Shown: piece after piece, positions 3 to 62,057 of the stretch
Numbering within the stretch: position 1 is the stretch's first letter
Layout: each line of letters begins with the position of its first letter
Assembly: GCA_018831265.1 (NCBI GenBank)
Contig: JAHJCO010000041.1
Location: 33,700-97,699 of the forward strand
Direction: 5' to 3'
From: Actinomycetota bacterium
GTDB lineage: Bacteria > Actinomycetota > Geothermincolia > Fen-727 > Anoxymicrobiaceae
DNA: 64,000 nucleotides
The notes under the pieces: generated by a model
What the model saw: only the letters and a program-made list of their open reading frames with translations
What the model was told of the DNA's origin: nothing
Databases searched by the model: none
Position numbers and translations under genes: made by a program

Positions 3-254
3 TCCCAGGCCGGACTGAACGGACTCTTCTTCGAGGATGCGCAGGACAGGTGCACCAAAGCATGGTACTACATCGACATCGACGGGCCTTACACTGTCGA
101 TAACTTGTTGTACGGGTTGTATGACCATTTGAATCATGTGCCGACGTGCGTCTGGTCTGAGACGGGATACGAAGGGGGATACAAGAAATGGCAGGAAGCT
201 ATCCCGGACACACAAGTAATGGACCCGGAAAAGGTACTTCCACGGTATCCATGA
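3..254 (+). CDS. 3' end of an upstream gene (5' truncated by the window edge), hypothetical protein
   Basis: Frame 3 is open from the window edge to TGA at 252-254 (...WYYIDIDGPYTVDNLLYGLYDHL...KVLPRYP*). The stop overlaps the next start as ATGA. No recognisable family. Confidence 0.35.
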   Translation, partial: SQAGLNGLFFEDAQDRCTKAWYYIDIDGPYTVDNLLYGLYDHLNHVPTCVWSETGYEGGYKKWQEAIPDTQVMDPEKVLPRYP

Positions 255-3019
255 GAAGACGCCAGTCGTCCTTTGCGGTGTTTGTCGTAGCACTAATACT
301 ACTGACCCCCGTTGCTGCAGTTGCCGGCGGAGGTCCGACTTTCCCGCTTGGGCAGGAGGGCGTGGAGGTGTCACTCCCTCGATTCCATGAGGGGGGCGTA
401 CGAGAACTCGAGAGCGACGGCGGTTTCTACGAGGCCTACGCCAGGGTAGGCGGAGAGTTCACCGAGTGGGAGAAGTACGACGTCTGCCTCCAGAAGGTCG
501 ACCCCGATGGCCGCATCCATGATGGCTGGCCCGCCGACTCCCTCCCGATCTGCACGCTGCCGGGATGGCAATCCCCGTACAAAGCCATATTGACGAACGA
601 CGGAGGCGTGATCGTGCTCTGGGGGGACGACCGCCCGGCATCACAAGGTGGGCCCGGCTGTTACTGCCAGCGGGTGGATTCAGACGGCGGAGTCCATCAA
701 GGTTGGCCGCAAAACGGATTCAAATACCATGGCGCCGAAACTTGGAGATCCGAGTGGCCAATCTATTTCACGGACGAGCAGAACGGCTTCTACGAATTCT
801 GTCTCGACTCGAGGGACTTTCCGCAGACGACCGATGCGGACGACCAGAAGTACGACATCTACGGGTATCGGTGCACCGGGGAACCAGCCACGGCCCCGGG
901 CTGGCAGTACGGCGGGAAGCGTATCCTTCCCAACCTCGCCTCCAGGCACGATCTCAAGGTTGTGCCCGACGGTAAGGGCAACGCGCTGCTCACCTGGATA
1001 GAGGATGACGATGTAGGCCAGGCATATTACGTCAAGGCTCTCAAGATAGGTCCTGACGGCAACGCCTGTCCCGGCTGGGACCCCGACGGGGTCATGCTGA
1101 TGAACGGGGATGAGATCTGGGATAGCGGAAACGACGTGTGGCTCGGTGGATGCGTTATGGTGAACGACGGCTTCGGTGGAGCGGTGGCGGTCTGGCTAGA
1201 CGTGCTCAGGGGTGGAACGTACCCCCACGGTGACTACTTCGCCCAGAGGGTGGACGCGAACGGAAACGTCCTCTGGCAGAAGAACGGCAGGCTGGTCTAC
1301 GACACGGAGTCGATTCTCGGCGACCCACACTCCGCCTCCTGCCCGGACATGCTCGGAGGAGCGTTCGTCCTGTTCGAGGCCCCGGAGGGAGACCCCTGGC
1401 AGGTGGTACACCTGTCTGCCGACGGCACGCCCAACGTGTTCAGCCTGGGGAGCTACCCCGCCGATACGAGTGAAAACGACATCTGGATCGAGGAGGACCG
1501 CTCGGGGGGCGTCTTCAGCCGGTTCACCGACGAAGACGGTGTCGTGTACGGCAAGAGCGACGTAACCGATATCAAGCGCTTCACCAGCCAGGGTACCCCG
1601 TATCCGGGATGGGAAACTCCCGTCATCGTAGAGCACGATGTCGACTACCTGGGCGCCTACATGCCCGGGGAGTGCGTGGTCACCTGGAAGATCGGCGCTT
1701 TCAATTGGGAGTCCATAGGCTACACACGCATTTGCGACCCCCCCAACTTCTCCACCTACATACTGCTGGCGAACCCCAACGACCAGGCGGCCGACGTCGA
1801 CCTCACCTTCATGCTGCCGGGAGGGATGACAAAGGACCACAGCGTAAGCGTCCCGGCAGAGGGAAGGGAGACCGTGTTCTTGAACGAGCTTCTCCCCGCC
1901 GTGGACGTCTCCACCACGGTGAGCGTGGAGGCGACCTTGCCCATAATAGCCGAGCGCTCCATGTACTTCGACTATCTCGGCTCCTATGAGGGTGGGCACG
2001 ACTGCGCGGGGATGACCTCTCCCTCGGACACCTGGTACTTCGCCGAGGGATACACGGCCGGGTCGTTCGACACCTACCTGCTGCTTCAGAACCCCCAAGG
2101 TACAGCAGCGAACGTAACTGTCACCTACATGCTCCCGGGTGCACAGACCATCACCGGCACGTACCAAGTGGCACCACATGCCCGCTACACGGTGAAGGTG
2201 GACGATATTCCTGGACTGGAATCAACCGAGCTATCCATGAAGGTGGACTCAGATCTTCTGATAACCGCGGAGAGGGCCATGTACTTCGACTACTACGGCA
2301 GGATAGGGGGACACGGACAGGCCGGGGTCCCGGCACCTTCAGCCACCTGGCACCTGGCTGAAGGCTACACCGCCCAGTCCTTCGATACCTACATACTGGT
2401 GCAGAACCCGGGAGATGCTCAAGCTACCGTCACCTACTCTTACCTGAAGGAGAACGGAGAGCCCGTAGAGAGGCAGGAGACGATAGCCCCCCACTCGCGC
2501 TTCACGGTGAAGGTGGACGAGGTTACCGGAATGGAGGCCGCCTCCTTCTCCACCACGCTCACCTCCAATGTCCCTGTGATAGCCGAGAGGGCCATGTACT
2601 TCGACTACTACGGTAAGCTCGGGGGACACGACTCGGTGGGGGCCACCTCACCTTCGGCCACCTGGTACCTTGCAGAGGGATACACCGCCGAGGGCTTCGA
2701 CACATTCGTACTGATGGAGAACCCGGGAACGGAGAGCGCCACCGTGAAGGCCACCTATATGAAGCCCTCCGGCGATCCCATCGAGAAGACCTACGTGCTC
2801 GAGCCCAAATCGCGCTTCACCCAGAAGGTGGACGACATACCTGGATTGGAGGCCACGGAGGTCTCCACCAGGCTGGAAACCACAGGCGGCAGCGAGATCG
2901 TGGCCGAGCGGGCGGTCTACTTCGCCTACAAGGGACTCTGGGCGGGGGGACACGACGCCATCGGGGTCACCGCCCCGTCTGCCTCCTGGTACTTCGCCGA
3001 AGGGTACACGGGGTACTGA
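251..3019 (+). CDS. secreted repeat protein: unknown ~480-aa N-domain (recurring D..G...GWP motifs) + 4 tandem ~110-aa 'WYxAEG...QNP...ERAMY' modules
   Basis: ORF 188..3019. Start moved to ATG 251 because MRRRQSSFAVFVVALILLTPVAAVA is a clean signal peptide and ATGA couples it to the upstream stop. The ~110-aa periodicity is visible in the translation; the protein ends on a terminal WYFAEGYTGY strand. Confidence 0.8.
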   Translation: MRRRQSSFAVFVVALILLTPVAAVAGGGPTFPLGQEGVEVSLPRFHEGGVRELESDGGFYEAYARVGGEFTEWEKYDVCLQKVDPDGRIHDGWPADSLPICTLPGWQSPYKAILTNDGGVIVLWGDDRPASQGGPGCYCQRVDSDGGVHQGWPQNGFKYHGAETWRSEWPIYFTDEQNGFYEFCLDSRDFPQTTDADDQKYDIYGYRCTGEPATAPGWQYGGKRILPNLASRHDLKVVPDGKGNALLTWIEDDDVGQAYYVKALKIGPDGNACPGWDPDGVMLMNGDEIWDSGNDVWLGGCVMVNDGFGGAVAVWLDVLRGGTYPHGDYFAQRVDANGNVLWQKNGRLVYDTESILGDPHSASCPDMLGGAFVLFEAPEGDPWQVVHLSADGTPNVFSLGSYPADTSENDIWIEEDRSGGVFSRFTDEDGVVYGKSDVTDIKRFTSQGTPYPGWETPVIVEHDVDYLGAYMPGECVVTWKIGAFNWESIGYTRICDPPNFSTYILLANPNDQAADVDLTFMLPGGMTKDHSVSVPAEGRETVFLNELLPAVDVSTTVSVEATLPIIAERSMYFDYLGSYEGGHDCAGMTSPSDTWYFAEGYTAGSFDTYLLLQNPQGTAANVTVTYMLPGAQTITGTYQVAPHARYTVKVDDIPGLESTELSMKVDSDLLITAERAMYFDYYGRIGGHGQAGVPAPSATWHLAEGYTAQSFDTYILVQNPGDAQATVTYSYLKENGEPVERQETIAPHSRFTVKVDEVTGMEAASFSTTLTSNVPVIAERAMYFDYYGKLGGHDSVGATSPSATWYLAEGYTAEGFDTFVLMENPGTESATVKATYMKPSGDPIEKTYVLEPKSRFTQKVDDIPGLEATEVSTRLETTGGSEIVAERAVYFAYKGLWAGGHDAIGVTAPSASWYFAEGYTGY

Positions 3020-3051: not shown

Positions 3052-3168
3052 CGGGGACTTCAGTCCCGGGTGAGATGGCGGACTGAAGTCCGCCCCCAAG
3101 CCTCACTGATTGGGCCGGGACTTCAGTCCCGGTAAGCGCGTTCGACGGCGGACTGAAGTCCGCCCCCA
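3052..3168. repeat. array of 4 short hairpin units (GGGACTTCAGTCCCGG / GCGGACTGAAGTCCGCC, alternating orientation) with shared spacer CCTCACTG..GATTGGG
   Basis: Read directly from the sequence. The same composite element recurs at 23706-23887, downstream of a paralogous gene. Confidence 0.75.
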
Positions 3169-3199
3169 AACATCAAAAGGCGTCAGCCCTGGATTTGTT

Positions 3200-3478
3200 T
3201 CACCCGCCCGCCAGCGGGAAGATCACCAGCAGCTCTTCACCGTCCCGGAGGGTGTCCGACCTTGCCAGCACCGGCCCGCCGCATCGGGCCAGCCTTATGC
3301 TCCTGTGAAAGCGGCCGTTTTCCGCGTCCCATAAGCCGGACGGCAGGCGCGAGCAGCGCTCCTCACCCAGGTGGTTGAGCAGGTCTCCCGCGGTGGAACC
3401 GTCGGCGACCTCGAAGACCGCCCCCCTCTCGCCCATGTATACGCCGAACACGCCCGTGAACAGGGTTGTGACCGTCAT
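3200..3478 (-). CDS. MoaD/ThiS-family small sulfur-carrier-like protein (ends in Gly-Gly)
   Basis: 92 aa with C-terminal ...FPLAGG and a beta-grasp-like pattern. Sits immediately downstream of AOR (TGA-gcc-ATG); MoaD-like genes commonly accompany AOR genes. Confidence 0.55.
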   Translation of the reverse strand: MTVTTLFTGVFGVYMGERGAVFEVADGSTAGDLLNHLGEERCSRLPSGLWDAENGRFHRSIRLARCGGPVLARSDTLRDGEELLVIFPLAGG

Positions 3479-3481
3479 GGC

Positions 3482-5359
3482 TCAGGACCCCCGCGCACCG
3501 TCGAGCATCAGCCCGGCGACCGACTTCAGGCCGAACCTCTCCAGCGTTTCGGCCGTCGGACGCCCATCGGGCCGCAGGCCTCGCAGCTCGTAGAACTCGC
3601 GGAGCATGGTCCCCATGTCGGGCACCGAGCCCGCTATCATACCGTCCCCGGTCGGGGTCATTATCCTCTCGCCGAGCCTGTCGTCCTCTCCGGTGGCGCC
3701 CCAGAGAAAGCCGAGGCAGCGCTGCAGGTGCCAGATGCGCGCTCCCGCCTCCATCATGGTCTCGATGTCGTAGCCGTATCCCGCCACCGTGTTGAACGCC
3801 TCCACCAGCTGGGGGATGGTCAGCGCCGTGGCCGGGAACTCGCACCAGCACGCCGAGTTGAATATCGCCCCCAGGTCGCTGGTGACCGCCGTCCCCAGCG
3901 CCTTGTGCTCGGTGGACTGCTCCTTCAGGATCATGTCCAGCCCCAGCTCCGGGTACTCCACCGCTCCCCACTCCAACAGGAACATCAGGTTGGAGACGTG
4001 GCAGGCACCGCGCACCGAGACGGCGTAGGCGAGCCCGTCCCCCCAGTTGCAGCGCGGGTCGTGCATCGGCGCCTCCAGGCCCTTGCTGTCGGTCAGGAAG
4101 CGCTCGCTGCCTCCTCCGACCTCGGCGGCGGCCGCCCTGGACCCCATCGCCAGGAGCCGGGCGAGTTTCCCTTCCCGGGCGGCGATCCTCGGCAGCAGCT
4201 CCAGCACCTCGTCTATCCCGCCCCACTCGAGCTTTACACCCTCGTAGTCCTCGGGCCTGAGGATACCGGCCTCGTAGCAGTCCATGGCCCAGGCGATGGT
4301 GGACCCGCAGGTCATGGTATCCATACCCAGCCGGTTGCACAGGTCGTTGGCGACCGCGACGGCCTCGAGGCTCGGGTTCATGAGCATGGTGCCGAACGCG
4401 GCGATGGTCTCGTACTCGGGCCCGGGCGTCTCAGGCATGCGATAGCGCCCCTCATCGACCCTGACCACCGGCTTGCACTTCACCGCGCACCCTCGACACC
4501 CCCGCGTTCCGGTCCGGATGGTGTCGGACATGGCGATGCCGCTCAGGGTCCGGGGGGCTTCCATCCAGGTCCCCCGCGACCAGTTCCTGGTGGGGACGTC
4601 CCCCTCCATCATCTTCATCTCCATGTTGGCGGCGGTGCCGAACGCCTGGACCGTCCGGCAGAAGATGCTCTCCTCGATCCGCGGGCGCAGGGTGCCGTCC
4701 CAGAGCTCCCGGAACCCCTCGGGATCGGCGAGCTCCGGCCTGCCGCCGCCGCTCGCGACTATCGCCTTGAGGTTCTTCGAGCCCATCACGGTGCCCATCC
4801 CCGCGCGTCCGAAGTGGTGCGCGCAGTCGTTTGTGATGCTGCCGAAGGGGACCCCGTTCTCCGAGGCCGGACCGATCGCCAGGACCTTGTAGCGGCGGCC
4901 GTGCCTCTTTTTCAGGAACCCGGTCGTCTCGAAGGTATCCATGCCCCACATTCGCCAGGCGGGCAGCAGCGCGGCGGTCCATTCCGTGATCATAAGGTAG
5001 ACAGGCTGCGCGGCCCGTCCCTGCAGCACCACCGCGTCGAACCCGCACCTCTTGAGCTCCGGGCCGAAGTTGCCGCCGCAGGATGACTGCCCCCAGATAC
5101 CCGTCAGTGGCGAGCGCGCGCCCGCGGAGAACCGGCTGGTGCCGTGCATCCCCGTCATGGCCATGGGGCCGGTGGCGAAGATAAGGACGGCCTCGGGGTC
5201 GAGCGGCCCCGCCTCGATGTCGCCGAGGTCCAGCAGCAGCTTCGCCGCGAGACCGCCGCCGCCGATATACCGCCGGTACGTCTCTTCCTCGAGCTCGATG
5301 GTCTCCGTCGTGCCGGCCGTGAGGTCTACCTTCAGGACTCTTCCGGTGTTGGCGTACAT
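3482..5359 (-). CDS. aor: tungsten-type aldehyde:ferredoxin oxidoreductase (AOR family)
   Basis: 625 aa. N-terminus MYANTGRVLKVDLT...YIGGGGLAAKLL and the RGCRGCAVKC Fe-S motif are typical of the AOR family. GGAGG sits 5 nt upstream of the ATG. Confidence 0.9.
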   Translation of the reverse strand: MYANTGRVLKVDLTAGTTETIELEEETYRRYIGGGGLAAKLLLDLGDIEAGPLDPEAVLIFATGPMAMTGMHGTSRFSAGARSPLTGIWGQSSCGGNFGPELKRCGFDAVVLQGRAAQPVYLMITEWTAALLPAWRMWGMDTFETTGFLKKRHGRRYKVLAIGPASENGVPFGSITNDCAHHFGRAGMGTVMGSKNLKAIVASGGGRPELADPEGFRELWDGTLRPRIEESIFCRTVQAFGTAANMEMKMMEGDVPTRNWSRGTWMEAPRTLSGIAMSDTIRTGTRGCRGCAVKCKPVVRVDEGRYRMPETPGPEYETIAAFGTMLMNPSLEAVAVANDLCNRLGMDTMTCGSTIAWAMDCYEAGILRPEDYEGVKLEWGGIDEVLELLPRIAAREGKLARLLAMGSRAAAAEVGGGSERFLTDSKGLEAPMHDPRCNWGDGLAYAVSVRGACHVSNLMFLLEWGAVEYPELGLDMILKEQSTEHKALGTAVTSDLGAIFNSACWCEFPATALTIPQLVEAFNTVAGYGYDIETMMEAGARIWHLQRCLGFLWGATGEDDRLGERIMTPTGDGMIAGSVPDMGTMLREFYELRGLRPDGRPTAETLERFGLKSVAGLMLDGARGS

Positions 5360-5370
5360 GAGTACCTCCG

Positions 5371-5823
5371 CTACTTGACCGATATCACCTTGGTCATGTG
5401 GGTGAGCGCCAGGTTATGGGCGAACATGCCCTTTATCTTGAGCTCGCCCTTGAGCAGCTTCTTGAGTACCATCCTTCCGACTTCGTCGAAGTAGTAGGGC
5501 AGCCCGAACCTGATCTGGATGTTGGCCAGGTCCAGGAGGGTCGAGGAGTCGGTCGATATCTGCAGCATGGGGTATCCCACCTTGCCCGGGTAGACCTTCA
5601 GACTTCCGCCGTCGAACAGCATGGTCATCTCGGTGTCCGCGTCGTCCGCCGTGATCCACACGTACCCGTCGAGCTTGTTGAAGTCCTTTACCCTGTCCGG
5701 CTTGTCCTTCAGGTTTGTCCGTATCATCTCCGCCATCATCACGGCCATTCCCGCGTCCCCGACGTCCGGTGCGAGGGTGATGTCCACCTCGCCGTTCCCA
5801 CCGGTGGTTGTCGCCTGTTCCAT
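5371..5823 (-). CDS. SCP2 (sterol/lipid carrier) domain protein
   Basis: The C-terminal ...LLKGELKIKGMFAHNLAL... pattern is SCP2-like. Start set to internal ATG 5823 (MEQATTT...) because GGAGG lies 5 nt upstream; the ORF-table start at 5862 directly abuts the ADH stop. Confidence 0.55.
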   Translation of the reverse strand: MEQATTTGGNGEVDITLAPDVGDAGMAVMMAEMIRTNLKDKPDRVKDFNKLDGYVWITADDADTEMTMLFDGGSLKVYPGKVGYPMLQISTDSSTLLDLANIQIRFGLPYYFDEVGRMVLKKLLKGELKIKGMFAHNLALTHMTKVISVK

Positions 5824-5863
5824 CTCTGCCTCCGTTTCCGGCTCCCCCATGGGAGCCCTCATA

Positions 5864-7027
5864 TCACCAGGCCTGCGCGAAAACCTCGAGCACCTGCTCC
5901 GGCTCGAGGATGGGGGTGGGGTTGTAGACGATGCTGCCGTCGTACATGCACAGCTCCGCGGCCTGCTCCAGGCCCTCGGATGGGACCCCCGCGTCTCGAA
6001 GTCTCTGCACTATCCCCAGGCTCTCGGTCAGGGCACAGATCGCCTGAATCGCCGCCTCGGCGGCCTCCCGGTCGCTCACCCCGGCCACGTCGATGCCCAT
6101 CGCCAGCGCGACCAGCCTGTACCTGTCGGGGCATGTCTCGATGTTGAATCTCATGGCGTGGGGCAGGACGATGCTGTTGGCCACCCCGTGCGGCACACCG
6201 AAGAGGCCGCCCACCGAGTGCGCCATGGCATGTGGCAGCCCGACCTGGGCGTTGTCGAAGGCGACCCCGGCCATGGTCGCGGCGCACTGCTGCTGACCGC
6301 GCGCCACCAGGTCGCCGCCGTCCGCGACGCACCTGGGCAGGTATTGCGTGATCAGCCTTATCGCGTGCAACGCCATGGCGTCGGCTACCGGTGAGGCCTG
6401 CAGTGTATGAATGGCCTCCACGGCGTGCGTGAAGGCGTCCATCCCGGTCGCCGCGGTAAGCAGCGGCGGAAGGCCCTCCACTATGGTGGGGTCCAGTATG
6501 CCGACGTCGGGGATTATGTGGTTGTCGGAAAAGAGCAGCTTCTGGTGCTTGTCCCAGTCCTTGACCACCGCGGTCATCGTGGCCTCACTGCCTGTCCCGG
6601 CGGTGGTGGGCACCACGACGTGCGGCGTCTGGGGGCGCTTGAGCAGCTGGAACCCGGAGTAGTCCTGGAGCCTCCCCCCCTCCTTGAGCAGGATCGCCAT
6701 GCCCTTGGCGGTGTCTATGGTGCTGCCGCCGCCCACGCTTACAAGGCAGTCGGCGCCCGCTTCCCTGGCGGCAGCCGTCGCCTCGTTTATGACGTGGATG
6801 CCCGAGTCCTGGATGCACGCGTCGAATGTGCCAGCGTGCTTTCCACCGAGCGCCTTCTCGATACGCTGCGAGATACCGGCCTCGACCACCCCCGGGTCGG
6901 TGACCACGAACGCCCGGTTGCATCCCAGCTCGCCGACCTCTATCCCCACGTCGGCAGCGGTCCCCTCGCCGAAAACGATCCTGGTGGGGTTCCTGTAGAC
7001 GAACGCAAGGTCCCTGTCGTACTCCAT
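5864..7027 (-). CDS. iron-containing (group III) alcohol dehydrogenase
   Basis: 387 aa. GGGSTIDTAKG and other Fe-ADH signatures are present. AAAGGAGG sits 6 nt upstream of the ATG. Confidence 0.9.
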   Translation of the reverse strand: MEYDRDLAFVYRNPTRIVFGEGTAADVGIEVGELGCNRAFVVTDPGVVEAGISQRIEKALGGKHAGTFDACIQDSGIHVINEATAAAREAGADCLVSVGGGSTIDTAKGMAILLKEGGRLQDYSGFQLLKRPQTPHVVVPTTAGTGSEATMTAVVKDWDKHQKLLFSDNHIIPDVGILDPTIVEGLPPLLTAATGMDAFTHAVEAIHTLQASPVADAMALHAIRLITQYLPRCVADGGDLVARGQQQCAATMAGVAFDNAQVGLPHAMAHSVGGLFGVPHGVANSIVLPHAMRFNIETCPDRYRLVALAMGIDVAGVSDREAAEAAIQAICALTESLGIVQRLRDAGVPSEGLEQAAELCMYDGSIVYNPTPILEPEQVLEVFAQAW

Positions 7028-7126
7028 CTAAGACCTCCTTTCAAAGACACCCGAGCGGCCCGGGCGCGGGGCGCCGCCCCGTGAACCCGTCCCACCGCCC
7101 CCGCCGGGGCAGCGGCCCCCGCCACC

Positions 7127-7711
7127 CTACACCGCCGGTGTCGCCGCTTTGATGCCCAGGAAGCGCTCGGCCAGCTCGTTGTTGATATGCCTGAACTCCG
7201 GGATCTCGTCGGAGGGGAGGTCGGGGGGAAACTTGCCGCCGACCTCCGCGCTGATGTCCGTGAGCCTCTGGGCGGCCCGGACCGCGCGCACGATGGTGGG
7301 AAGATCGCCCTTGAGCTTGAGCTTGCCCTGCATCATGCCCTTGACCGCGTCCAGCTCCCTCTTGCCGACCTGCGTCCAGCGATCGAGCGACCCGCTGATG
7401 ATGAAGTCGCCGGCCAGGCCCGCGCTCTCGGGGACGATCCTCACCGAGCGGCACTCGCCGTGCCAGAGGTCCATGAAGACGTAGAGGTCGAACTCGAGGC
7501 CGCGCTCCGGGTCGGGCTCGACGTGCAGGACCACGCTGCCCTCCCAGTCCTTCGCGGCCTCCTTGTAGATTTCGTCCATCCGGATCGCCTTCTCGAACAG
7601 CGCGACCCATTCCGGGGTGAAGTAGATGTAGGGCGGCGGGCTCTTGCTCTTCTCCGCGACCACCGCCTGGTACTCCTGCTCCCACTCGTCGGTTCCGTAC
7701 TGAAGTGTCAT
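7127..7711 (-). CDS. SCP2 domain protein
   Basis: ...KGMMQGKLKLKGDLPTIVRA... is an SCP2 signature. Start moved to ATG 7711 (MTLQYGTDEW...) with GAGGAGGG upstream. The ORF-table 5' extension runs into the intergenic region. Confidence 0.6.
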   Translation of the reverse strand: MTLQYGTDEWEQEYQAVVAEKSKSPPPYIYFTPEWVALFEKAIRMDEIYKEAAKDWEGSVVLHVEPDPERGLEFDLYVFMDLWHGECRSVRIVPESAGLAGDFIISGSLDRWTQVGKRELDAVKGMMQGKLKLKGDLPTIVRAVRAAQRLTDISAEVGGKFPPDLPSDEIPEFRHINNELAERFLGIKAATPAV

Positions 7712-7896
7712 GATTCCCTCCTCGATATCGTGGCTGCGCCCGTATGCCGTCAGCCTGACTGCTATTACGGTGAAGTGACGAAAACCATTTGCCGGAGCGC
7801 GGGCGCATGATTCGTCGAGCGCGTCCGTAATGACAGGCATACGGACAGGGGTCGAAGGTGCCGGGCGCTTTTGACCCCCGGTGAAAGGAGACCCCG

Positions 7897-9702
7897 ATGA
7901 GAGACGGCACGATAGGGGGCATGTTCTTCAACCGCGTGGAGAAGTACGGGGACCGGGTGATGATGAAGCACAAGGGCCCCGGAGTCTGGACCGACATCTC
8001 CTGGAACGAGTTCGGCGAAAAGGTCCGTCAGCTGGGCCTCGCGATGATAGTCTCGGGGGTTCAGCCGGGCGACCGCGTGGCGATCTTCTCGCCCAACTGC
8101 CCGGAGTGGCAGATGGCGGACATGGCCATCCAGTCGATCGGGGCGGTCAACGTCCCGCTGTATGCCACCATAACCGCGAAGCAGGCGGAGTACATACTCG
8201 AGGACTCCGGCTCGAAGATGGTTTTCGTGGGAAGCGAGGACCACATGAACAGGGTCCTGGAGGTCCGCGACAACCTGCCGGCGCTGGAGAAGATCGTGAC
8301 GATCTGCGAGACATCCTCCGATCACCCGGCGGTGATGAGCTTCGAGGAGCTTCGCATGTTCGGCGCGACCGGCGCAACGGACGACGAGTTCGGCGACCGC
8401 CTGGAGGCGGTGAAGCCCGACGATCTCTGCAGCATCGTCTATACATCGGGGACGACCGGGAACCCCAAGGGTGTAATGCTCACCCACCGCAACTTCATGT
8501 CCAACGTCCGGGCGGCATCGAGCCTGGTCGAGGTGGACGACTCGGACATCTGCCTGTCGTTCCTCCCACTGAGCCACGTGCTCGAGCGCATGAGCGGGTA
8601 CTATACGGCCGTCTACAACGGCGTCAGCATCGCGCACGCGCAGTGCATCGACACGCTCGCCGAGGACATCGCGGAAATAAAGCCCCACTGGATGGTCAGC
8701 GTCCCCCGGCTGTACGAGAAGGTCTACGCCGGCGTCCAGGCCAACGTCGCGGCCGAGCCGCCCGTCAAGCAGAAGATCTTCAACTGGGCGGTGGGCATAG
8801 GCCGTCAGGCGAGCCAGTTGAAGGTCGACCGGAGGCCTTTCCCCCTCGGGCTCAAGATAAAGTACGCGATCGCGAGCAAGCTGGTCTTCTCCAAGATAAG
8901 CGAGAAGCTTGGCGGCCGGCTCCGGTTCTTCTTCTCGGGCGGCGCCCCCCTCGCGCGCGAGATCGCCGAGTTCTTCAGCGCCCTGGGCGTTACCATCCTG
9001 GAGGGATTCGGGCTCACCGAGACATCGCCGGTGCTCACCGTGAACCGGCCCGACGCGATGAGGTTCGGCTCGGTGGGAACTCCCCTGCCCGGCGTCCAGG
9101 TGAGGATCGCTCCCGACGGCGAGATACTGGCCAGGGGACCGAACATCATGCGCGGCTACTGGAACAGGCCCGCCGATAGCTCCGAGGCCCTGGCCGACGG
9201 CTGGTTCCACACCGGCGACATCGGCCACATCGATCCCGAAGGGTTCCTGTTCATCACCGACCGCAAGAAGGACCTCATCGTCACGGCGGGCGGCAAGAAC
9301 GTCGCCCCCCAGAACGTGGAGAACGCGCTCAAGCTGGACAGCTACATCGAGCAGGCGGCGGTAATAGGCGACCGGCGCAGGTTCATCAGCGCGCTCATCG
9401 TGCCGGCGTTCGAGGTGCTGGAGGCATGGGCCGGGGAGAACGGCATCGATACCGCCGACAGGGCGAAGCTGGTCGCCGACCCCAGGGTCGTCCGGTTCAT
9501 GCAGCAGCGCGTGGACGAGGCGCAGGCCGACTTCGACCGCCACGAGCGGGTGATGAGGTTCGTGCTCCTGGGCGAGGAGATGACCGAGGAGTCCGGCCTC
9601 CTCACACCGACGCTGAAGGTCAAGCGCAAGGAGGTCGCTTCCCGGTTCGCCGAGCAGATCGAGTCGATGTACGCCGAGGAGCCCGAGCCGGCGCTGGTCT
9701 GA
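7897..9702 (+). CDS. long-chain-fatty-acid--CoA ligase (AMP-binding enzyme family)
   Basis: 601 aa. AMP-binding motif YTSGTTGNPKGVMLTHRN. AGGAGA sits 6 nt upstream. Divergent from the AOR/ADH operon. Confidence 0.9.
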   Translation: MRDGTIGGMFFNRVEKYGDRVMMKHKGPGVWTDISWNEFGEKVRQLGLAMIVSGVQPGDRVAIFSPNCPEWQMADMAIQSIGAVNVPLYATITAKQAEYILEDSGSKMVFVGSEDHMNRVLEVRDNLPALEKIVTICETSSDHPAVMSFEELRMFGATGATDDEFGDRLEAVKPDDLCSIVYTSGTTGNPKGVMLTHRNFMSNVRAASSLVEVDDSDICLSFLPLSHVLERMSGYYTAVYNGVSIAHAQCIDTLAEDIAEIKPHWMVSVPRLYEKVYAGVQANVAAEPPVKQKIFNWAVGIGRQASQLKVDRRPFPLGLKIKYAIASKLVFSKISEKLGGRLRFFFSGGAPLAREIAEFFSALGVTILEGFGLTETSPVLTVNRPDAMRFGSVGTPLPGVQVRIAPDGEILARGPNIMRGYWNRPADSSEALADGWFHTGDIGHIDPEGFLFITDRKKDLIVTAGGKNVAPQNVENALKLDSYIEQAAVIGDRRRFISALIVPAFEVLEAWAGENGIDTADRAKLVADPRVVRFMQQRVDEAQADFDRHERVMRFVLLGEEMTEESGLLTPTLKVKRKEVASRFAEQIESMYAEEPEPALV

Positions 9703-15642: not shown

Positions 15643-16815
15643 CTATAGCCTGATCGTGATATCGCCCAGCGGGTAGGACATGCAGGGATGGATGTAGCCG
15701 AAAGCCACGTCGGCCTTGCGCAGCACCACCGAGGCGGGCATGAACACCTCGCCGGAAACCAGTTGAGAGCGGCAGACCCCGCATTCCCCCGAGCGGCAGA
15801 GGTTCTCGACCGCGACACCGTTGCGCTCGAGCGAGTTGAGCAGCGGCTCCCCGCAAAGGGCCTCGAAGCTCGACCGCGTGCCCTCTATCCTGACGGTGGC
15901 CTTCTTCGAGGGCTTGATCTTCTTCGGCCAGCCTTCGACCAGGGTAATGTCAGGCGGCGGGCCGCTCGCCTCCTTCTTGACGCTCGCCGGGGAGACCCCG
16001 AGCCCCTCCAGCGCCCCGGTGCACAGCCCGTACATCGCGTGGGGCCCGCAGATGAAGAACGTCTTGCCCTCCGCCCCGTCCAGCAGGGACGAGAGCATCG
16101 GAGCGTCGAGGAAGCCGCGGCAGCCGCTGAACTCGTCCGGCGGCTCGCTGATTACCAGGTCCAGCCGGAAGCTCTCATGGGTACGGGCCATCGCGGCCAG
16201 CTCATCCTCGAAGATGACATCGTCGAGGGTGCGCGAGCCGTACACCAGGTGGACGCGCGGCCCGGCGTCCAGGTCGGCGAAAGAGCGGACCATGCTCATG
16301 AAGGGGGTCACGCCGCTGCCCCCGGCCAGGAACACCAGCTCACGTGAGTCGGTCATCGGCTCGTGGTAGAAGGAGCCCCCGGGGCCCGAGAGCTCGAAGA
16401 CGTCGCCCACGGCGGCTTCTTCGCAGAGGTACACCGAGACGAACCCTGACGGCATCTTACGAACCGTGATGTCCAGGTAGCTCCTGGTGGGAGGAGACGA
16501 GACACTGTAGGCGCGGCTGGTGCGCACCCCGCCCACCTCGCAGAGTAGGGCGAAGAACTGCCCCGCGCGAAACGGCGGGAACGGCTCGCCGACCGGCACC
16601 AGGCGGAGCGTCCTGGTGCTGGCCGTCTCCTCTATGATCTCCGCGACCCTGCCGGGCACGCGCCGGGGGTGCAGGCGCTCCACCAGCTCGTCGGGGAGCC
16701 CCGGCTCCACGTCCCTGACGTCGGCCAGCGAATCGGCCACCATCTGCTTGCCCAGCACGAGCCCGATGGAGGCCACGTCGTGAAGCCCGTCGGCCAGGTC
16801 CCTCAGCGCCATCAC
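15643..16815 (-). CDS. ferredoxin-reductase-type oxidoreductase: FAD-binding + NAD(P)-binding + C-terminal plant-type 2Fe-2S ferredoxin domain
   Basis: RxYS FAD motif (RAYSVSSPP), GGSGVTP NAD-binding motif, and C-terminal CRSGECGVCRS...C cluster. Confidence 0.8.
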   Translation of the reverse strand: MMALRDLADGLHDVASIGLVLGKQMVADSLADVRDVEPGLPDELVERLHPRRVPGRVAEIIEETASTRTLRLVPVGEPFPPFRAGQFFALLCEVGGVRTSRAYSVSSPPTRSYLDITVRKMPSGFVSVYLCEEAAVGDVFELSGPGGSFYHEPMTDSRELVFLAGGSGVTPFMSMVRSFADLDAGPRVHLVYGSRTLDDVIFEDELAAMARTHESFRLDLVISEPPDEFSGCRGFLDAPMLSSLLDGAEGKTFFICGPHAMYGLCTGALEGLGVSPASVKKEASGPPPDITLVEGWPKKIKPSKKATVRIEGTRSSFEALCGEPLLNSLERNGVAVENLCRSGECGVCRSQLVSGEVFMPASVVLRKADVAFGYIHPCMSYPLGDITIRL

Positions 16816-16830
16816 ACTCTCCTTATGAGT

Positions 16831-18369
16831 CTACCCGGTGGCAGGGAGCAGCTTCGCGAGCCCCCTGGTGCCCCGCAGGTCCTTCATAACCTCGCCGTAG
16901 GCGAAGAGCCCCGAGGTGATGCAGGTCTCCATGCCGCCGCCCATCCTCACCCACGCGTTCGCGAAGAAGAGCCGCTCCAGCGGGCCGCGGTTCGACAGGC
17001 GGAACGGCGGGCTGCCCGCCAGGTCGTAGTCGAACCCGAGGATGGAGCCTCCCGGGTTCCCACTGTAGCGCATGTTGGTGATGGGGGTGGAGACCTCCAC
17101 CACCGCGAGGTGGTCCTTCAAGCCCGGAAAGCGGCGGTCGGTCGCCTCGATCATCTCGCGGGCAATCCGGTCCTTGGTCTCGCGATAGCGGTCGGCGGGC
17201 AGGTGCGCCCACGGGGTGTAGTCGACCAGCGCGGTCAGCACCACCACCGAGGTGCCGGGTGGGGAGAACTCCGGGTCGGCGTGGTTGTAGTTGGTCACCG
17301 CCCAGTACGACGGCCGGTCCGTGGTGAACATCCTCAGGTACTGATCGTCGTAGTCGTACCCCTCGTTGATGAAGAACTCGTGCCCGTCGAGCCCCAGATC
17401 GGCGGCCGGGTGGTCGAGGCCCATGTACACGTTGAAGGTGGACACCGCGATGTGGCGACCCGCGAGGGCCTTGAGGTAATCGGCCGGCACCTTGTCCGGC
17501 CCGATGAGCGAGAAGCAGGTCGTGATGGGATTGGCGCTGCACACCACGAAGTCGGCCTTGTGCCTGCCGCCCTGCCCGGTCACCACCCCGGTGGCGCGAC
17601 CGTCGGCGACCTCGATGCTGACGACCCCGTCGCGAAGGTGCACCCGCCCACCGTTGTCCTCGATGGACTCGACGAACGCGTTGGAGAGCGCCTGGGTGGT
17701 CCCCTTGACGTGGTAGGGGCCGTGCTCGATATAGGAGGCGTTGGCGACGGCGAAGAGCAGCCAGGAGAGGCGCGAGGGCGGCAGTCCGTAGTACCCCCAG
17801 ATGTTGGTGAACAGCGCCTTCAGCCCGGGGTCCTTCATCTCGCGGTCGAGCGCCTGCGCTACTGTGATACCCATGGAGCGCACCAGGTCGCCGGCCTTGA
17901 AGGGGAGGGTCAGCGCGTCGGACGCCTTTGTGATCTTCGAGGCCTCGGCGGACGCGTCGTTTATCCTGCGCATGGCCTGCATTACCCTGCTTATCCCCTT
18001 GCGCTCCCGGGGGAACTGATCGCAGTATGCCTCCTCGGCCGCCTCCCAGCCGTGGGGCACCCTCACCGTGAAGTCGGGGAAGATGGAGGTGTAGAAGTCA
18101 TCTATCGGGAGGAACTCCACCCGGCGCGCGACGTCGCAACCCTCCAGCACGCGGTAGCACGAGCCGCGGTTGCCGGGTGGGCCGATGCCCGAGAGCTCGT
18201 GCAGCGAGGCCTCGAACTCGTACGGGCCCCGGACGAAGCTGCAGGCGTAGCCGCCCGGGTAGCTGTTGCGCTCGAAGACGTCCACCTCGAGGCCGGCCCT
18301 GGCGAGATAGGCCGCCGCCGAGAGCCCGCCGAGCCCCGCGCCTACCACGATCGCGCGCTTGTCTTTCAT
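16831..18369 (-). CDS. phytoene-desaturase-family (CrtI-like) FAD/NAD(P)-dependent oxidoreductase
   Basis: MKDKRAIVVGAGLGGLSAAAYLARAG...GGYACSF is the CrtI-family N-terminus. Start set to ATG 18369 (GGGGAG 5 nt upstream); the ORF-table start at 18513 is an upstream extension. Apparently cotranscribed with the downstream reductase. Confidence 0.8.
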   Translation of the reverse strand: MKDKRAIVVGAGLGGLSAAAYLARAGLEVDVFERNSYPGGYACSFVRGPYEFEASLHELSGIGPPGNRGSCYRVLEGCDVARRVEFLPIDDFYTSIFPDFTVRVPHGWEAAEEAYCDQFPRERKGISRVMQAMRRINDASAEASKITKASDALTLPFKAGDLVRSMGITVAQALDREMKDPGLKALFTNIWGYYGLPPSRLSWLLFAVANASYIEHGPYHVKGTTQALSNAFVESIEDNGGRVHLRDGVVSIEVADGRATGVVTGQGGRHKADFVVCSANPITTCFSLIGPDKVPADYLKALAGRHIAVSTFNVYMGLDHPAADLGLDGHEFFINEGYDYDDQYLRMFTTDRPSYWAVTNYNHADPEFSPPGTSVVVLTALVDYTPWAHLPADRYRETKDRIAREMIEATDRRFPGLKDHLAVVEVSTPITNMRYSGNPGGSILGFDYDLAGSPPFRLSNRGPLERLFFANAWVRMGGGMETCITSGLFAYGEVMKDLRGTRGLAKLLPATG

Positions 18370-18557
18370 GTCACTCCCCGCCCGAGCCGATAACAGATGA
18401 GTCGTGTGGCTATTCTCTTCCCACCCGGGGGACAACGCAAGGCCGCCGGCCCTTGTGCTACACAGGCAGCCATTAGCGTTAGAATGGTGCAAAAGGGTCA
18501 GGCACTTTTGCACGAGTCGAGGAACAGCCCCTGGAAGAAGACGGGAGGGTCCCTGCG

Positions 18558-20831
18558 ATGAGGACGAGCAGATTCGTACTGATAGGCGTTACTGTCTGCG
18601 CACTGGCGATGCCCGCGAGCGCGGCGGCGGTCGCCCAGCCCGTGATCCAGGGGTGGGTCGAACAGGTCTCCGGGGTTACGCACAGGCTGCAGTCCGTCGG
18701 CGCGGTCAGCCAGGATGTGGCATGGGCGGTGGGCACCAACGATACCATCCTCAAGACGACGGACGGCTCGACCTGGCAGGCGCAGGCCTCCGGGACCACC
18801 GGTGAGGACTTCGCCTGCGTCGACGCCCTGGACGCCAGCAACGCCTGGATCGTGGGCGATGGGGGCACGGTGCTGCGCACCACCAACGGGACCGCCTGGA
18901 ACCCGCCGCCGGCGCCGGTGCCGACGGGCACCAAGAACCTGAGGGGCGTGAAGATGCTCAGCGCCACCACGGTCTGGATAGTGGGCTACGACGGGACCAT
19001 CCTGAAGACGACCGACGGCGGTACCGTCTGGGACAACCAGAGTGTAGCGGGAAAGAGCCTGTGGAGCATAGATGCCACCGACTCGAACCACGCCTTCGCG
19101 GTCGGAGACGAGGGCAGGGTCGTCAGGACCATCAACGGCGGGGGCACCTGGTACGAGCGCGACCCGGGGACGACGAGTAAGCTGCGGGGAGTGGTGATGA
19201 CCGACTCCAACACCGCCTGGGCGGTCGGGTACAACGGGACCATCGTGAAGACCACCAACAGCGGGACCAACTGGACGACGCAGCCCAGCCCGACCGACGA
19301 CATCCTCTTCGACATAAGCGCGGCGGGCTCGAACACGGCATGGACGGTCGGGTACAACGATTTCAGCAGCCTGGGCGGGTTCATACTCCAGACGGGGAAC
19401 GGGGGAAACGGCTGGTTCAAGCAGCCCGCCCCCCCGGTCGGCGACCTGTACGGCGTGTCCGCCGTGGACGCCAACACCGCCTGGGCGGTGGGGGCCGGCG
19501 GAACGATCCTAAAGACCGAGAACGGGGGCGAGTCACTGACCACCTGGTACCTGGCGGAGGGATCCTCCGACTGGGGCTTCGAGACCTTCATCGCCATCGA
19601 GAACCCCAACACGGTGCCGGTCACCGCGGAGGTGACCTACCAGACCAGGGACGGCGAGCAGACACGCCCGGACCTGCCGCTCGCCGCGCAGTCCCAGGTG
19701 GTCATCGATCCCAGGGGCGACGTGGGTGCGACCGACTTTTCGACCAGGGTCGAGTGTAAGGAAGGCTATACCATCGCGGTGGACAGGCGCATGATGTGGA
19801 CCGGCCCTGGCGCCGGCTGCCAGGAGTCCCACAGCTCGGTGGGGGTGACCGCCCCCGACACGACCTGGTTCCTCCCCGAGGGTTCCTCCAAGTGGGGTTT
19901 CGAGTGCTGGCTCCTCGTTCAGAACCCCAACGGCGCCCAGGCGAACTGCGAGGTCACCTACATGATAGAAGGCGAAGGGCCTCAGGTGATCGCGCATACT
20001 GTACCGGCGAACTCGAGGGCTTCTTTCGACATGTCACAGGACATCGGCGCGAAGGACGCCTCGATCCGCGTGGACTCGGACCTGCCGGTGATCCCCGAGA
20101 GGGCGATGTACCGGTACAACCGGCGCGAGGGCCACGAATCCATCGGGACCATCAACCCTTCGATGGACTACTACCTGGCCGAGGGGTGCACTTCCTACGG
20201 TTTCACGTCCTTCATCCTGGTGCAGAACCCCCAGGCGACGGCCACCGATGTCACTGTGACGTACATGACCGGCGCGGGGCCCGTGGACATGCCCGTCTTC
20301 AGGATGGAGCCCAACACCAGGCGGACCATAAACGTGAACGCCGAGGCGGTGCTCCCCGATCCCAACTTCTCGACCCGGGTCCACGGCACGCAGCCCATAA
20401 TCGCCGAGCGGGCCATGTACTGGGACCGCGGGTACGGCGAGGCCTGTCACGACTCAATAGGCATGCCCGCCCCGGACTACGTGTTCTACCTGCCGGACGG
20501 GGATTCCAGCCCACAGTTCGAGACCTGGACGCTCATCCAGAACCCGAACCCCGTGGATGCCCAGGTGATCGTCTCGTACTTCAGGCCCAACGGGCAGGGA
20601 AACGTGACGAAGATGGAGACGATCCCCGCCAACAGCCGGAGGACCTACGAGATGGGAGCGCACTCGGGTGCCGCCGGCCGCGCGGCGGTGATGGTCAGCA
20701 GCGACCCCGAAGCGGGCCGCCCGGTGATGGTCGAGCGCTCCATGTACTGGCCCAGGGAGAGCGTGAACCCCTCGCTGTGCAGGGGCGCCGGCACGGACAC
20801 GATCGGCGGTTCTTCGAGCTTCCAACCGTAG
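18558..20831 (+). CDS. secreted protein: 7-bladed BNR/Ycf48-like beta-propeller + 4 tandem 'WYLAEG...QNP...ERAMY' modules
   Basis: Signal peptide MRTSRFVLIGVTVCALAMPASAAAVA. Seven WAVG..GTILKTTDGG.TW blades. The same ~110-aa module as genes 251-3019, 21031-23712 and 33512-35851. Confidence 0.8.
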   Translation: MRTSRFVLIGVTVCALAMPASAAAVAQPVIQGWVEQVSGVTHRLQSVGAVSQDVAWAVGTNDTILKTTDGSTWQAQASGTTGEDFACVDALDASNAWIVGDGGTVLRTTNGTAWNPPPAPVPTGTKNLRGVKMLSATTVWIVGYDGTILKTTDGGTVWDNQSVAGKSLWSIDATDSNHAFAVGDEGRVVRTINGGGTWYERDPGTTSKLRGVVMTDSNTAWAVGYNGTIVKTTNSGTNWTTQPSPTDDILFDISAAGSNTAWTVGYNDFSSLGGFILQTGNGGNGWFKQPAPPVGDLYGVSAVDANTAWAVGAGGTILKTENGGESLTTWYLAEGSSDWGFETFIAIENPNTVPVTAEVTYQTRDGEQTRPDLPLAAQSQVVIDPRGDVGATDFSTRVECKEGYTIAVDRRMMWTGPGAGCQESHSSVGVTAPDTTWFLPEGSSKWGFECWLLVQNPNGAQANCEVTYMIEGEGPQVIAHTVPANSRASFDMSQDIGAKDASIRVDSDLPVIPERAMYRYNRREGHESIGTINPSMDYYLAEGCTSYGFTSFILVQNPQATATDVTVTYMTGAGPVDMPVFRMEPNTRRTINVNAEAVLPDPNFSTRVHGTQPIIAERAMYWDRGYGEACHDSIGMPAPDYVFYLPDGDSSPQFETWTLIQNPNPVDAQVIVSYFRPNGQGNVTKMETIPANSRRTYEMGAHSGAAGRAAVMVSSDPEAGRPVMVERSMYWPRESVNPSLCRGAGTDTIGGSSSFQP

Positions 20832-23712: not shown

Positions 23713-23887
23713 GCCCATGCTTGAGCCCGGGCTCTAAGCCCGGGATTCATTCGGGGATTGGGCGCGGACTTCAGTCCGCTGACGGATCGCCTACCGGGAC
23801 TGAAGTCCCGGCCCAACCTCACTGCTGATTGGGAGCGGACTTCAGTCCGCTGACGGATCGGGCTTGGGCGCGGACTTCAGTCCGCGA
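23706..23887. repeat. GAGCCCGGGCTCTAAGCCCGGG hairpin + 4 GGACTTCAGTCC/GGACTGAAGTCC units (same element as 3052-3168)
   Basis: Read directly. Shared spacer CCTCACTGCTGATTGGG. Confidence 0.75.
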
Positions 23888-54637: not shown

Positions 54638-54933
54638 CTGACTCCACCTTCTCCGCCTGAATTCGCATCGGCGTCCGACCCCGATGCGATCAACGCTCCC
54701 GTGCCGAGAGCACAATCCGCTTCCCAGGCCTGGGTCCTCTCCCTGCGCGCGGGATCCACGCGGACGGCTCCGACCGGGCAGGTGAGCTCGCAGTTGTAGC
54801 AGGTCATACAGTCGTCCCTGTACCTGATCTTCGCCTTGCGGCTTGGCGGATCGAGGTGGATGACGTCCATCGGACAGCAGACGTCACAGTTCCCGCATCC
54901 CAGGCAGAGCTCCTCGTCGATACGGTCTATCAT
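54634..54933 (-). CDS. 2x[4Fe-4S] ferredoxin
   Basis: CLGCGNCDVCCP and CMTCYNCELTCP motifs; 99 aa; 4-nt overlap with the upstream flavoprotein gene. Confidence 0.8.
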   Translation of the reverse strand: MIDRIDEELCLGCGNCDVCCPMDVIHLDPPSRKAKIRYRDDCMTCYNCELTCPVGAVRVDPARRERTQAWEADCALGTGALIASGSDADANSGGEGGVS

Positions 54934-56678: not shown

Positions 56679-56679
56679 C

Positions 56680-60745: not shown

Positions 60746-60749
60746 GAGG

Positions 60750-61550: not shown

Positions 61551-61574
61551 GCCGCTCGACGGCGGCTGATAGGA

Positions 61575-62057
61575 ATGGGAATGGAGACCCGCAGGGTCAC
61601 GACCAAGGAGGTGAAGCGGATGGCCATGGAAGCGTCCGACGTCTCGGCGTTCATGTTGTCCGCGTATCGTAACGGCGTGCTGGACCGATTCGTCCCGATC
61701 CTGGGAAAGGCAATGGACGGCGCCCTGGCCGAAGCCGGCGTCGGCCTCGAGCAGATCGTCTACCAGATAGACGAGGCCGGAGAGGATACCCTGCGAAGGC
61801 TGGGCCTCTACTTCTCGCGGTCCGCCGTGTTGATGCGGCTGGCGGCGAGCGACGCCGTCATGAAGGTGCTCTCGGTGATGCTGGGTACCCGCCTTGTCTC
61901 GCGCTCGGTCGAGGCCGTCCTGCGCTTCTCGCTGGGGCTGGTGCTGTCATCCGGAGCGGACGCGGGCACGCTCGGTGAACGGTTGAAAGCCCGTGCCGGG
62001 GCGCGGCGGGGAGGACCTCGCCGCGAGGCGCAAGGTGGTGGTGAAAATGGCCGTTAA
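61575..62057 (+). CDS. hypothetical protein (160 aa), uncertain
   Basis: Open frame between etfB and the FAD oxidase with no recognisable motif; the Gly/Arg-rich C-terminus overlaps the next gene's leader. Could be non-coding. Confidence 0.3.
   Translation: MGMETRRVTTKEVKRMAMEASDVSAFMLSAYRNGVLDRFVPILGKAMDGALAEAGVGLEQIVYQIDEAGEDTLRRLGLYFSRSAVLMRLAASDAVMKVLSVMLGTRLVSRSVEAVLRFSLGLVLSSGADAGTLGERLKARAGARRGGPRREAQGGGENGR

Follow-up and report, generated by a model that had tools for sequence, protein, structure and literature searches.

In a 64,000-nt window (the whole stretch of DNA analysed here, ~65% G+C) from contig JAHJCO010000041.1 of an Actinomycetota bacterium, five consecutive co-directional genes on the minus strand were found to encode, in order of transcription, a first SCP2-fold protein (SCP2-A), an iron-type alcohol dehydrogenase (Fe-ADH), a second and dissimilar SCP2-fold protein (SCP2-B), a single-subunit aldehyde:ferredoxin oxidoreductase (AOR) and a MoaD/ThiS-like beta-grasp protein. 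The first three genes form a triplet that keeps its order and strand across at least four phyla and is joined at most informative loci by an AOR gene; the domains or folds of its products are recognisable, and the catalytic and cofactor-binding residues of both enzymes are intact. With about even confidence, the triplet and the AOR are read as a conserved catabolic or redox module that would interconvert a poorly water-soluble primary alcohol, its aldehyde and the corresponding carboxylic acid, the SCP2 pair acting as hand-over partners for the two enzymes.

The conservation of this arrangement was investigated with a motif scan for SCP2-B in one genome per species (185,579 species), which returned relatives in 111 genomes; 80 loci were fetched (designated by numbers preceded by L), and gene order was read from tblastn searches of the window proteins against them. 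The ADH gene was located directly upstream of SCP2-B at 69 of 74 informative loci, and the fixed order SCP2-A–ADH–SCP2-B on one strand was observed at 65 of 71. An AOR gene adjoined the triplet at 45 of 57 informative loci, in 31 cases upstream (Desulfomonilia, Syntrophaceae, Desulfobacterales and Nitrospirota) and in 14 downstream (Actinomycetota and a few others). The module-linked AORs formed one clade when compared with two non-module AORs, and one 'downstream' AOR nested among the 'upstream' sequences, a test that is weak with only two outgroups; the association between AOR and the triplet therefore looks ancestral, with later rearrangement. Clustering of 1235 flanking open reading frames (ORFs) revealed no further family common to more than 13 loci, some clusters being artefacts of antisense ORFs, and the conserved unit was therefore taken to be the triplet together with the AOR. 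The hosts comprised 17 Actinomycetota, four Nitrospirota, one Planctomycetales and many metagenome-assembled genomes (MAGs) of Thermodesulfobacteriota or 'Deltaproteobacteria', and the habitats of the host MAGs included peat, fen, groundwater, deep mines, digesters and a worm symbiont. Conservation of the cluster in relatives, which the initial annotation of this DNA had named as a check on its proposal, was thus borne out for the triplet. The five-gene unit that it had described was retained in part: SCP2-A, ADH, SCP2-B and AOR belong to the conserved unit, but the MoaD-like gene, which follows the AOR gene at seven loci only (six actinomycetal loci and L032), is not part of the core.

The two small proteins were placed mainly through their predicted folds. 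SCP2-B is labelled a hypothetical protein at NCBI and scores below the threshold of the SCP2 family model (Table 1), and the profile of its family found no match among PDB sequences, so that a fold search was needed to place the protein. An AlphaFold2 model built with 42 homologues (predicted local distance difference test score, pLDDT, 86.9) matched 11 PDB chains at E <= 0.001 in Foldseek, all of the SCP2 type, with UbiJ-SCP2 as the best match (E 4e-6), followed by TT1886 and sterol carrier protein 2; the C-terminal domains of alkylsulfatases matched just short of this cut-off. Sequence identity to the UbiJ and UbiT structures was 12-14% only. The modelled fold nevertheless agrees with the SCP2 assignment previously given to this weakly matching ORF, and the protein also carries the C-terminal SCP2 hallmark G-x-LK-[IL]-KG, in addition to an invariant motif, G[LM]PYYFDxxG, that is specific to the family. 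Loss of the SCP2 assignment, named beforehand as one ground for refuting the proposal, thus did not occur. Relatives of SCP2-B amounted to 567 cluster representatives among 1.84 billion. The only longer proteins among the best 150 of these were considered as possible fusions and rejected, as P0185, P0204 and P0208 have a membrane tail and are without GLPYYFD, and the N-terminus of P0057 was mis-called.

For SCP2-A the assignment was more direct. Its model (pLDDT 91.4) was most similar to the Thermus thermophilus protein TT1886 (2cx7/1wfr; TM score 0.92, root-mean-square deviation 1.5 Å, 35% identity), its closest relative, which has no assigned function and is without the extra N-terminal helix and the C-terminal helical extension (~55 residues in Actinomycetota) of SCP2-A. 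All 32 PDB chains matched at E <= 0.001 were SCP2-type lipid or isoprenoid binders or the substrate-recruiting domains of alkylsulfatases. The sequence family returned 1794 matches, and a second copy of it was seen on the opposite strand just after the module in L013 (13134-13697) and L014 (10587-10889). The possibility that SCP2-A and SCP2-B are recent duplicates was rejected, as the profile-profile probability was 3.5% and the only common part was the G-x-LK-[IL]-KG motif.

The GGGSxxD dinucleotide motif and the Asp/His/His/His metal site of the Fe-ADH were at least 95% conserved in 58 module ADHs. The enzyme nevertheless scored below all NCBIfam equivalog cut-offs (309 bits for ErcA, cut-off 550; 304 bits for FucO/lactaldehyde reductase, cut-off 523), and its relatives in the PDB include methanol dehydrogenase, 1,3-propanediol dehydrogenase and FucO. 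On sequence grounds it is assigned to a distinct, unnamed clade and, because it stays under every named equivalog cut-off, its substrate is not readable from homology.

The structures closest to the AOR were 9mqx, 9g7j and 1aor (316-332 bits), with AorB (8c0z) at 267 bits and FOR, WOR5 and BamB also well lower. Residues C288, C291, C295, C506, E317 and H454 align with C288, C291, C295, C494, E313 and H448 of the Pyrococcus furiosus enzyme (PfAOR), and in 50 module-linked AORs no variation was seen at the four cysteines of the [4Fe-4S] cluster or at the catalytic Glu and His. By these comparisons the protein is placed in the AOR sensu stricto clade, of the single-subunit type; a bis-pterin cofactor with tungsten, or possibly molybdenum, would be expected. 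No AorA- or AorC-like genes (polyferredoxin and FAD subunits) were detected in the operon or nearby. The first pterin motif, GMDTMTCG, is present, whereas the second (residues 501-506, nucleotides 3842-3859) reads N-S-A-C-W-C in place of the canonical D-S-x-G-x-C. As this N-S-x-x-x-C form was found to be widespread among the module-linked enzymes (see below), it is a possible marker of their clade. The MoaD-like protein ends in ...PLAGG and is named a MoaD/ThiS family protein by the NCBI pipeline (PGAP), but it remained below threshold for both ThiS (Table 1) and SAMP1 (17.8 bits against 60). It is probably a lineage-specific sulfur carrier for the pterin cofactor of the AOR. Genes for tungsten or molybdenum cofactor synthesis and for tungstate uptake, which had been suggested as a further check, were absent from the 64-kb window with the exception of the MoaD-like gene itself.

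The arrangement of the five genes in the window is given in Table 1. Their third-codon-position G+C content (0.85-0.91) is of the coding type, the proteins are recorded at NCBI as MBU1670876-MBU1670880 from Actinomycetota MAGs, and their nearest named relatives come from Candidatus Geothermincolia and Anoxymicrobiaceae.

Table 1. Features of the SCP2–alcohol dehydrogenase–AOR operon and its immediate surroundings (positions in the 64,000-nt window)
Feature	Position	Strand	Remarks
SCP2-A	7127..7711	-	194 aa, first gene of the operon; PF02036 42.7 bits, threshold 21.3
Fe-ADH (group III iron-type alcohol dehydrogenase)	5864..7027	-	387 aa; PF00465 + PF25137
SCP2-B	5371..5823	-	150 aa; PF02036 17.2 bits, threshold 21.3 (below); ORF reaches ATG at 5862
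AOR, single-subunit aldehyde:ferredoxin oxidoreductase	3482..5359	-	625 aa; AFOR_N 233.7 + AFOR_C 355.2 bits, both well over threshold
MoaD/ThiS-like beta-grasp protein	3200..3478	-	92 aa, C-terminal GG; ThiS 19.1 bits, threshold 22.5
Terminator-like hairpin + T-run	3177..3190	-	directly 3' of MoaD stop; consensus scan
Divergent intergenic region, SCP2-A/acyl-CoA ligase	7712..7896	.	185 bp; presumed promoters
FadD11-like long-chain acyl-CoA ligase	7897..9702	+	AMP-binding + AMP-binding_C_3; divergent from operon

All five genes were present as initially annotated (3200-7711) and all five domain assignments held. The span that had been attached to the operon, 5371-7711, contains SCP2-A, ADH and SCP2-B only, the AOR and MoaD-like genes lying at 3200-5359. 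The gap between SCP2-B and AOR is 11 nt and the AOR/MoaD junction reads TGAgccATG, with 3 nt between the genes; the exception among these short junctions is a GC-rich spacer of 99 nt between SCP2-A and Fe-ADH, which was rejected as a structured element, its fold energy being no better than that of shuffled sequences (z = -0.42). At the stop of the Fe-ADH gene the junction reads TGAtATG, and the translational coupling claimed from it was upheld for the sequence but not for the start codon: a GGAGG precedes the ATG at 5823, and the 100%-identical NCBI protein and all homologues begin there, so that the ATG at 5862 is probably not used. A GGAGG-type Shine-Dalgarno sequence was seen before four of the five starts, with GAGGAGGG located 4 nt ahead of the SCP2-A ATG, but not before every gene as had been stated, the MoaD start having GGGGG only. 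The terminator-like hairpin is the probable end of the operon, and a convergent gene ends beyond it at 3019. A scan of the operon region, including 7712-7896, for the sigma-70 promoter consensus returned no promoter-like sites.

Taken together, these assignments suggest a two-step conversion in which the Fe-ADH would carry out the alcohol/aldehyde step with NAD(P) and the tungsten-type AOR the aldehyde/acid step with ferredoxin. The two SCP2-fold proteins would bind the hydrophobic substrate and the reactive aldehyde and pass both on to ADH and AOR. In MFE-2, SCPx and alkylsulfatases, fused SCP2 domains present hydrophobic substrates, as does UbiJ in the ubiquinone metabolon, and it is because these domains act in this way that hand-over is proposed here. 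In this genome the MoaD-like protein probably serves the synthesis of the AOR pterin cofactor, and the acyl-CoA ligase encoded divergently from the operon would activate the acid product. The hydrophobic nature of the substrate and a physical hand-over or complex would follow from the resemblance to these systems, and a long-chain fatty substrate is suggested by the SCP2 fold and by scattered beta-oxidation neighbours.

Loci that depart from the common arrangement were used to consider the direction of the pathway. In L031 (10478-13755), the AOR position 139 nt past SCP2-B is taken by a tandem of two genes for NAD-dependent aldehyde dehydrogenases (PF00171, 556 bits), an apparent non-orthologous displacement of the AOR which indicates that the step after the ADH is that from aldehyde to acid. 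NAD-dependent aldehyde dehydrogenases work essentially one way, towards the acid, and this replacement therefore favours oxidation. Acyl-CoA ligases adjoin the module in the window and in L001, L007, L012, L071 and L082. At about 13 deltaproteobacterial-type loci (for example L049, 3508-5391, and L037, 5516-6172), genes assigned by reading of the sequences as a PAS/HisKA_3 sensor kinase with multiple transmembrane segments and a LuxR-type regulator lie directly upstream of AOR–SCP2-A–ADH–SCP2-B, which suggests induction by the substrate. On account of the aldehyde dehydrogenase replacement, the adjacent ligases and these two-component regulators, oxidation from alcohol through aldehyde to acid would most likely be the physiological direction, and is somewhat better supported than the reverse, both steps being reversible. 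The direction initially proposed, from acid through aldehyde to alcohol, found no specific support: the L031 dehydrogenases and adjacent ligases point to oxidation, and one further variant would fit reduction. In this variant, seven loci of one unclassified 'bacterium' lineage (L053, L058, L065, L074, L075, L077 and L081) have a 137-aa hotdog thioesterase of the 4HBT type 17-18 nt after SCP2-B, and at these loci no AOR was found within 10 kb. In L086 (10872-15310), genes for MoeA, a MoeA-PBP fusion, MoaA and MoaC follow the triplet without an adjacent AOR, and the presence of these molybdenum cofactor genes after SCP2-B links the triplet with a pterin enzyme whose gene lies elsewhere.

The pair of SCP2-fold proteins was also found with a different partner. 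In two Geothermincolia/Actinomycetota MAGs (L029, 5100-7891, and L034, 7998-10429), SCP2-A-like and SCP2-B-like proteins bracket two DUF2148 ferredoxin-domain proteins with the motif DCGACGFATCAE, in place of an ADH, and the flanks hold genes for acyl-CoA dehydrogenase, thiolase, an AMP-ligase and short-chain dehydrogenase/reductase (SDR) proteins; the SCP2 pair has thus been reused with another redox enzyme in an acyl-CoA context. Two proteobacterial MAG loci (L082, 7659-10409, and L067, 575-3154) have, directly after SCP2-B, a phytoene-desaturase/amine-oxidase-like flavoprotein (PF01593) and an FNR-like FAD/NAD/2Fe-2S reductase. A homologous pair (33% and 45% identity) is encoded in the window on the minus strand at 15643-16815 and 16831-18513, ~8 kb from the module, and may be accessory to the same pathway.

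These variants were weighed against several other explanations of the cluster. In the reductive route, the AOR would reduce free (fatty) acids with reduced ferredoxin and the ADH would then make alcohols, either as an electron sink or to provide fatty alcohols for the synthesis of wax or ether lipids, the lipids being carried by the SCP2 proteins. Enzymes of the AOR sensu stricto group can reduce acids, although only at very low potential or low pH (PMC6365974). The CooS/prismane gene in the window suggests an acetogen-like host, in which low-potential ferredoxin is therefore plausible, and lipid-synthesis and export genes (MMPL and CDP-alcohol phosphatidyltransferase) less than 10 kb from the module would likewise fit, as would the hotdog thioesterase of the single lineage, which would release free acid. 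However, free-acid reduction requires no acyl-CoA ligase, yet ligases adjoin the module, the regulators at about 13 loci look catabolic and the AOR has been displaced by NAD-dependent aldehyde dehydrogenases in L031; a reductive route was therefore considered unlikely. It was also possible that the SCP2-fold proteins are structural or regulatory subunits of the ADH, with a role in assembly, stabilisation or aldehyde channelling, and that the substrates are ordinary short-chain or aromatic compounds, as when syntrophs and sulfate reducers oxidise ethanol by way of AOR. This would explain the very high conservation of both small proteins, which extends to polar, Trp and Tyr positions (GLPYYFD; W35, W56 and D81), and the fixed places of their genes on both sides of the ADH gene; the nearest characterised relatives of the ADH use small alcohols, and the hosts belong to syntroph and sulfate-reducer lineages. 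All structures matched at E <= 0.001 (11 chains for SCP2-B and 32 for SCP2-A) are, however, SCP2-type binders or alkylsulfatase domains, paralogous SCP2 pairs occur within beta-oxidation-like clusters, and no ADH fusions were seen among the best 150 SCP2-B relatives, which leaves this explanation quite unlikely.

The substrate of an SCP2-assisted pathway might also be an isoprenoid alcohol or aldehyde (phytol, farnesol, a polyprenol or a carotenoid-type aldehyde) and not a straight-chain fatty compound, given that the structure matched best by SCP2-B, UbiJ-SCP2, is that of an accessory factor which binds polyprenyl compounds, and that the phytoene-desaturase-like flavoprotein and its reductase follow SCP2-B in L082 and L067 and recur 8 kb off in the window. 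As that pair occurs in three lineages only, as PF01593 enzymes have many non-isoprenoid substrates, as Foldseek rank among SCP2 structures is not substrate-specific, and as fatty-acid-type neighbours (FadD11-like ligase, acyl-CoA dehydrogenase, thiolase) are more frequent, an isoprenoid substrate was judged very unlikely. Lineage-specific MoaD, ligase and MMPL neighbours would be expected if the adjacency of the genes in this genome were fortuitous; this is refuted by the 65 of 71 loci, spread over four phyla or more, that keep both order and strand amid otherwise unrelated flanks, and its probability was regarded as negligible.

Several observations nevertheless weigh against the proposed SCP2-assisted module. 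Among the 111 genomes, almost all of them MAGs, none with the full module came from a cultured organism, and the lipid-gene neighbours are lineage-specific. Fusions of the SCP2 proteins to ADH or AOR were found neither among the best 150 of the 567 SCP2-B relatives nor among the best 120 SCP2-A relatives, so that a complex finds no support of the Rosetta-stone kind. The conservation of both SCP2 proteins is unusually high, with mean column identities of 57-67%, which suggests protein-protein interfaces or another specific role more readily than a passive carrier; as such conservation suggests specific contacts, it keeps the subunit explanation alive. Lone members of the SCP2-A family are also encountered (L003-L005, 8001-8573; Solincola, beside carAB and gltB) which, with the extra copies near the module in L013 and L014, indicate that the SCP2-A family is broader than the module. 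The departure of the second pterin motif from the canonical form extends across the family, as N501 is present in 45 of 50 module-linked AORs, in which N-S-x-x-x-C replaces D-x-x-G-x-C. Lastly, the thioesterase variant provides an acyl link of a kind that would fit reduction.

Beyond the module itself, the genes that had been taken as a fitting lipid context could not be retained as such. The divergent acyl-CoA ligase and the MMPL gene recur, together with a PorA-like neighbour, only in the nearest relatives L001 and L007, and the 'lipase' and second ligase lie 28-39 kb away. In L012 a different ligase (33% identity) is found at the same place, and the ligase of the window reached 418 bits with the FadD11 NCBIfam model, against a cut-off of 950.

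Each part of the arrangement has known counterparts. Two-step routes with AOR and ADH are present in Pyrococcus and Thermococcus, in the acetogen AOR route to ethanol and in the AOR-dependent ethanol oxidation of syntrophs and Desulfovibrio. They share with the present module the two enzyme families, the use of NAD(P) and ferredoxin and the alcohol, aldehyde and acid series, but they act on small soluble substrates and SCP2 partners were not found there in the literature searched, whereas here the SCP2 pair are the steadiest neighbours of the ADH, more constant than the AOR. SCP2 domains accompany enzymes acting on hydrophobic substrates in MFE-2 (1ikt), SCPx and the alkylsulfatases SdsA1 and Pisa1 (2cfu and 2yhe), which were among the Foldseek matches; in the module described here they are separate polypeptides, two unlike SCP2 proteins accompany one enzyme, and the partners, Fe-ADH and AOR, are new for SCP2. 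UbiJ and UbiT (6h6n/6h6o/6h6p), which include the best match of SCP2-B, are likewise unfused proteins with the SCP2 fold, from which soluble enzymes receive a hydrophobic intermediate, but no ubi genes were found in any of the neighbourhoods, the hosts live strictly anaerobically and GLPYYFD is a motif specific to the SCP2-B family. In the aorABCDE operon of Aromatoleum aromaticum, the MoaD-like genes aorD and aorE follow the tungsten AOR gene and are thought to serve maturation of the tungsten cofactor (PMC6365974). A MoaD-like gene likewise stands behind a tungsten-type AOR gene in the window; the Aromatoleum enzyme is the three-subunit, NAD-using AorABC, and AorA and AorC genes are lacking here.

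AOR and ADH routes, MoaD-like genes in an aor operon and SCP2 domains attached to lipid enzymes were thus already known separately. A pairing of SCP2 with AOR, or an Fe-ADH bracketed by two SCP2 proteins, was not found in the open-access literature, where a phrase search may miss 'aldehyde:ferredoxin' spelled with a colon. The statement that the arrangement had not been described before is therefore in agreement with the literature searched, and what appears new is an Fe-ADH bracketed by two unfused, dissimilar SCP2 proteins and linked to a tungsten-type AOR across phyla.

The remainder of the window was also surveyed. Four genes for large secreted DUF5719-repeat proteins (188-3019, 18558-20831, 21031-23712 and 33512-35851), with BNR/YCF48-like, beta-helix or PGA_cap domains, represent an expanded surface-protein family in this genome. 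The palindromic 12-mer GGACTTCAGTCC is present in eight copies, against 0.5 expected, which occur only in intergenic clusters at 3055-3161 and 23766-23883; each of the two follows closely on a gene for one of these proteins (188-3019 and 21031-23712), and the clusters look like arrays of hairpins resembling repetitive extragenic palindromes (REP). Genes for anaerobic redox metabolism encode a CooS/prismane-family protein (42804-44750), a ferredoxin, an SdhA-like flavoprotein and an ADP-forming acyl-CoA synthetase-like protein (54634-58197), and EtfAB with an FAD-linked oxidase (59714-63525). MMPL and CDP-alcohol phosphatidyltransferase genes are located within 10 kb of the module.

Routes that combine AOR and ADH hold a central place in the anaerobic metabolism of alcohols and acids and have biotechnological use for the reduction of acids to alcohols, so far with soluble substrates only. 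The module suggests how strict anaerobes of peat, aquifers, sediments and digesters might process insoluble alcohols and aldehydes, candidate substrates being alcohols of the wax, fatty or isoprenoid type and ether-lipid-derived aldehydes. It also gives a context to the 'hypothetical' SCP2-B family and provides the first clear enzymatic partners for the large TT1886-type family of bacterial SCP2 proteins. If the hand-over is true, the genes would be of use in engineered routes from long-chain acids to alcohols. A bolder proposal, made tentatively and with rather low confidence, is that SCP2-A and SCP2-B are a dedicated lipid-chaperone pair, possibly a heterodimer, which would dock on the soluble oxidoreductases of anaerobes and pass on insoluble substrate and toxic aldehyde without release, as a portable adaptor for Fe-ADH and AOR here and for the DUF2148 proteins in L029 and L034. 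Were this so, the pair would do in bacteria, as separate proteins and in a manner not yet described, what SCP2 domains do within peroxisomal enzymes, and tungsten AORs would have a new kind of accessory principle.

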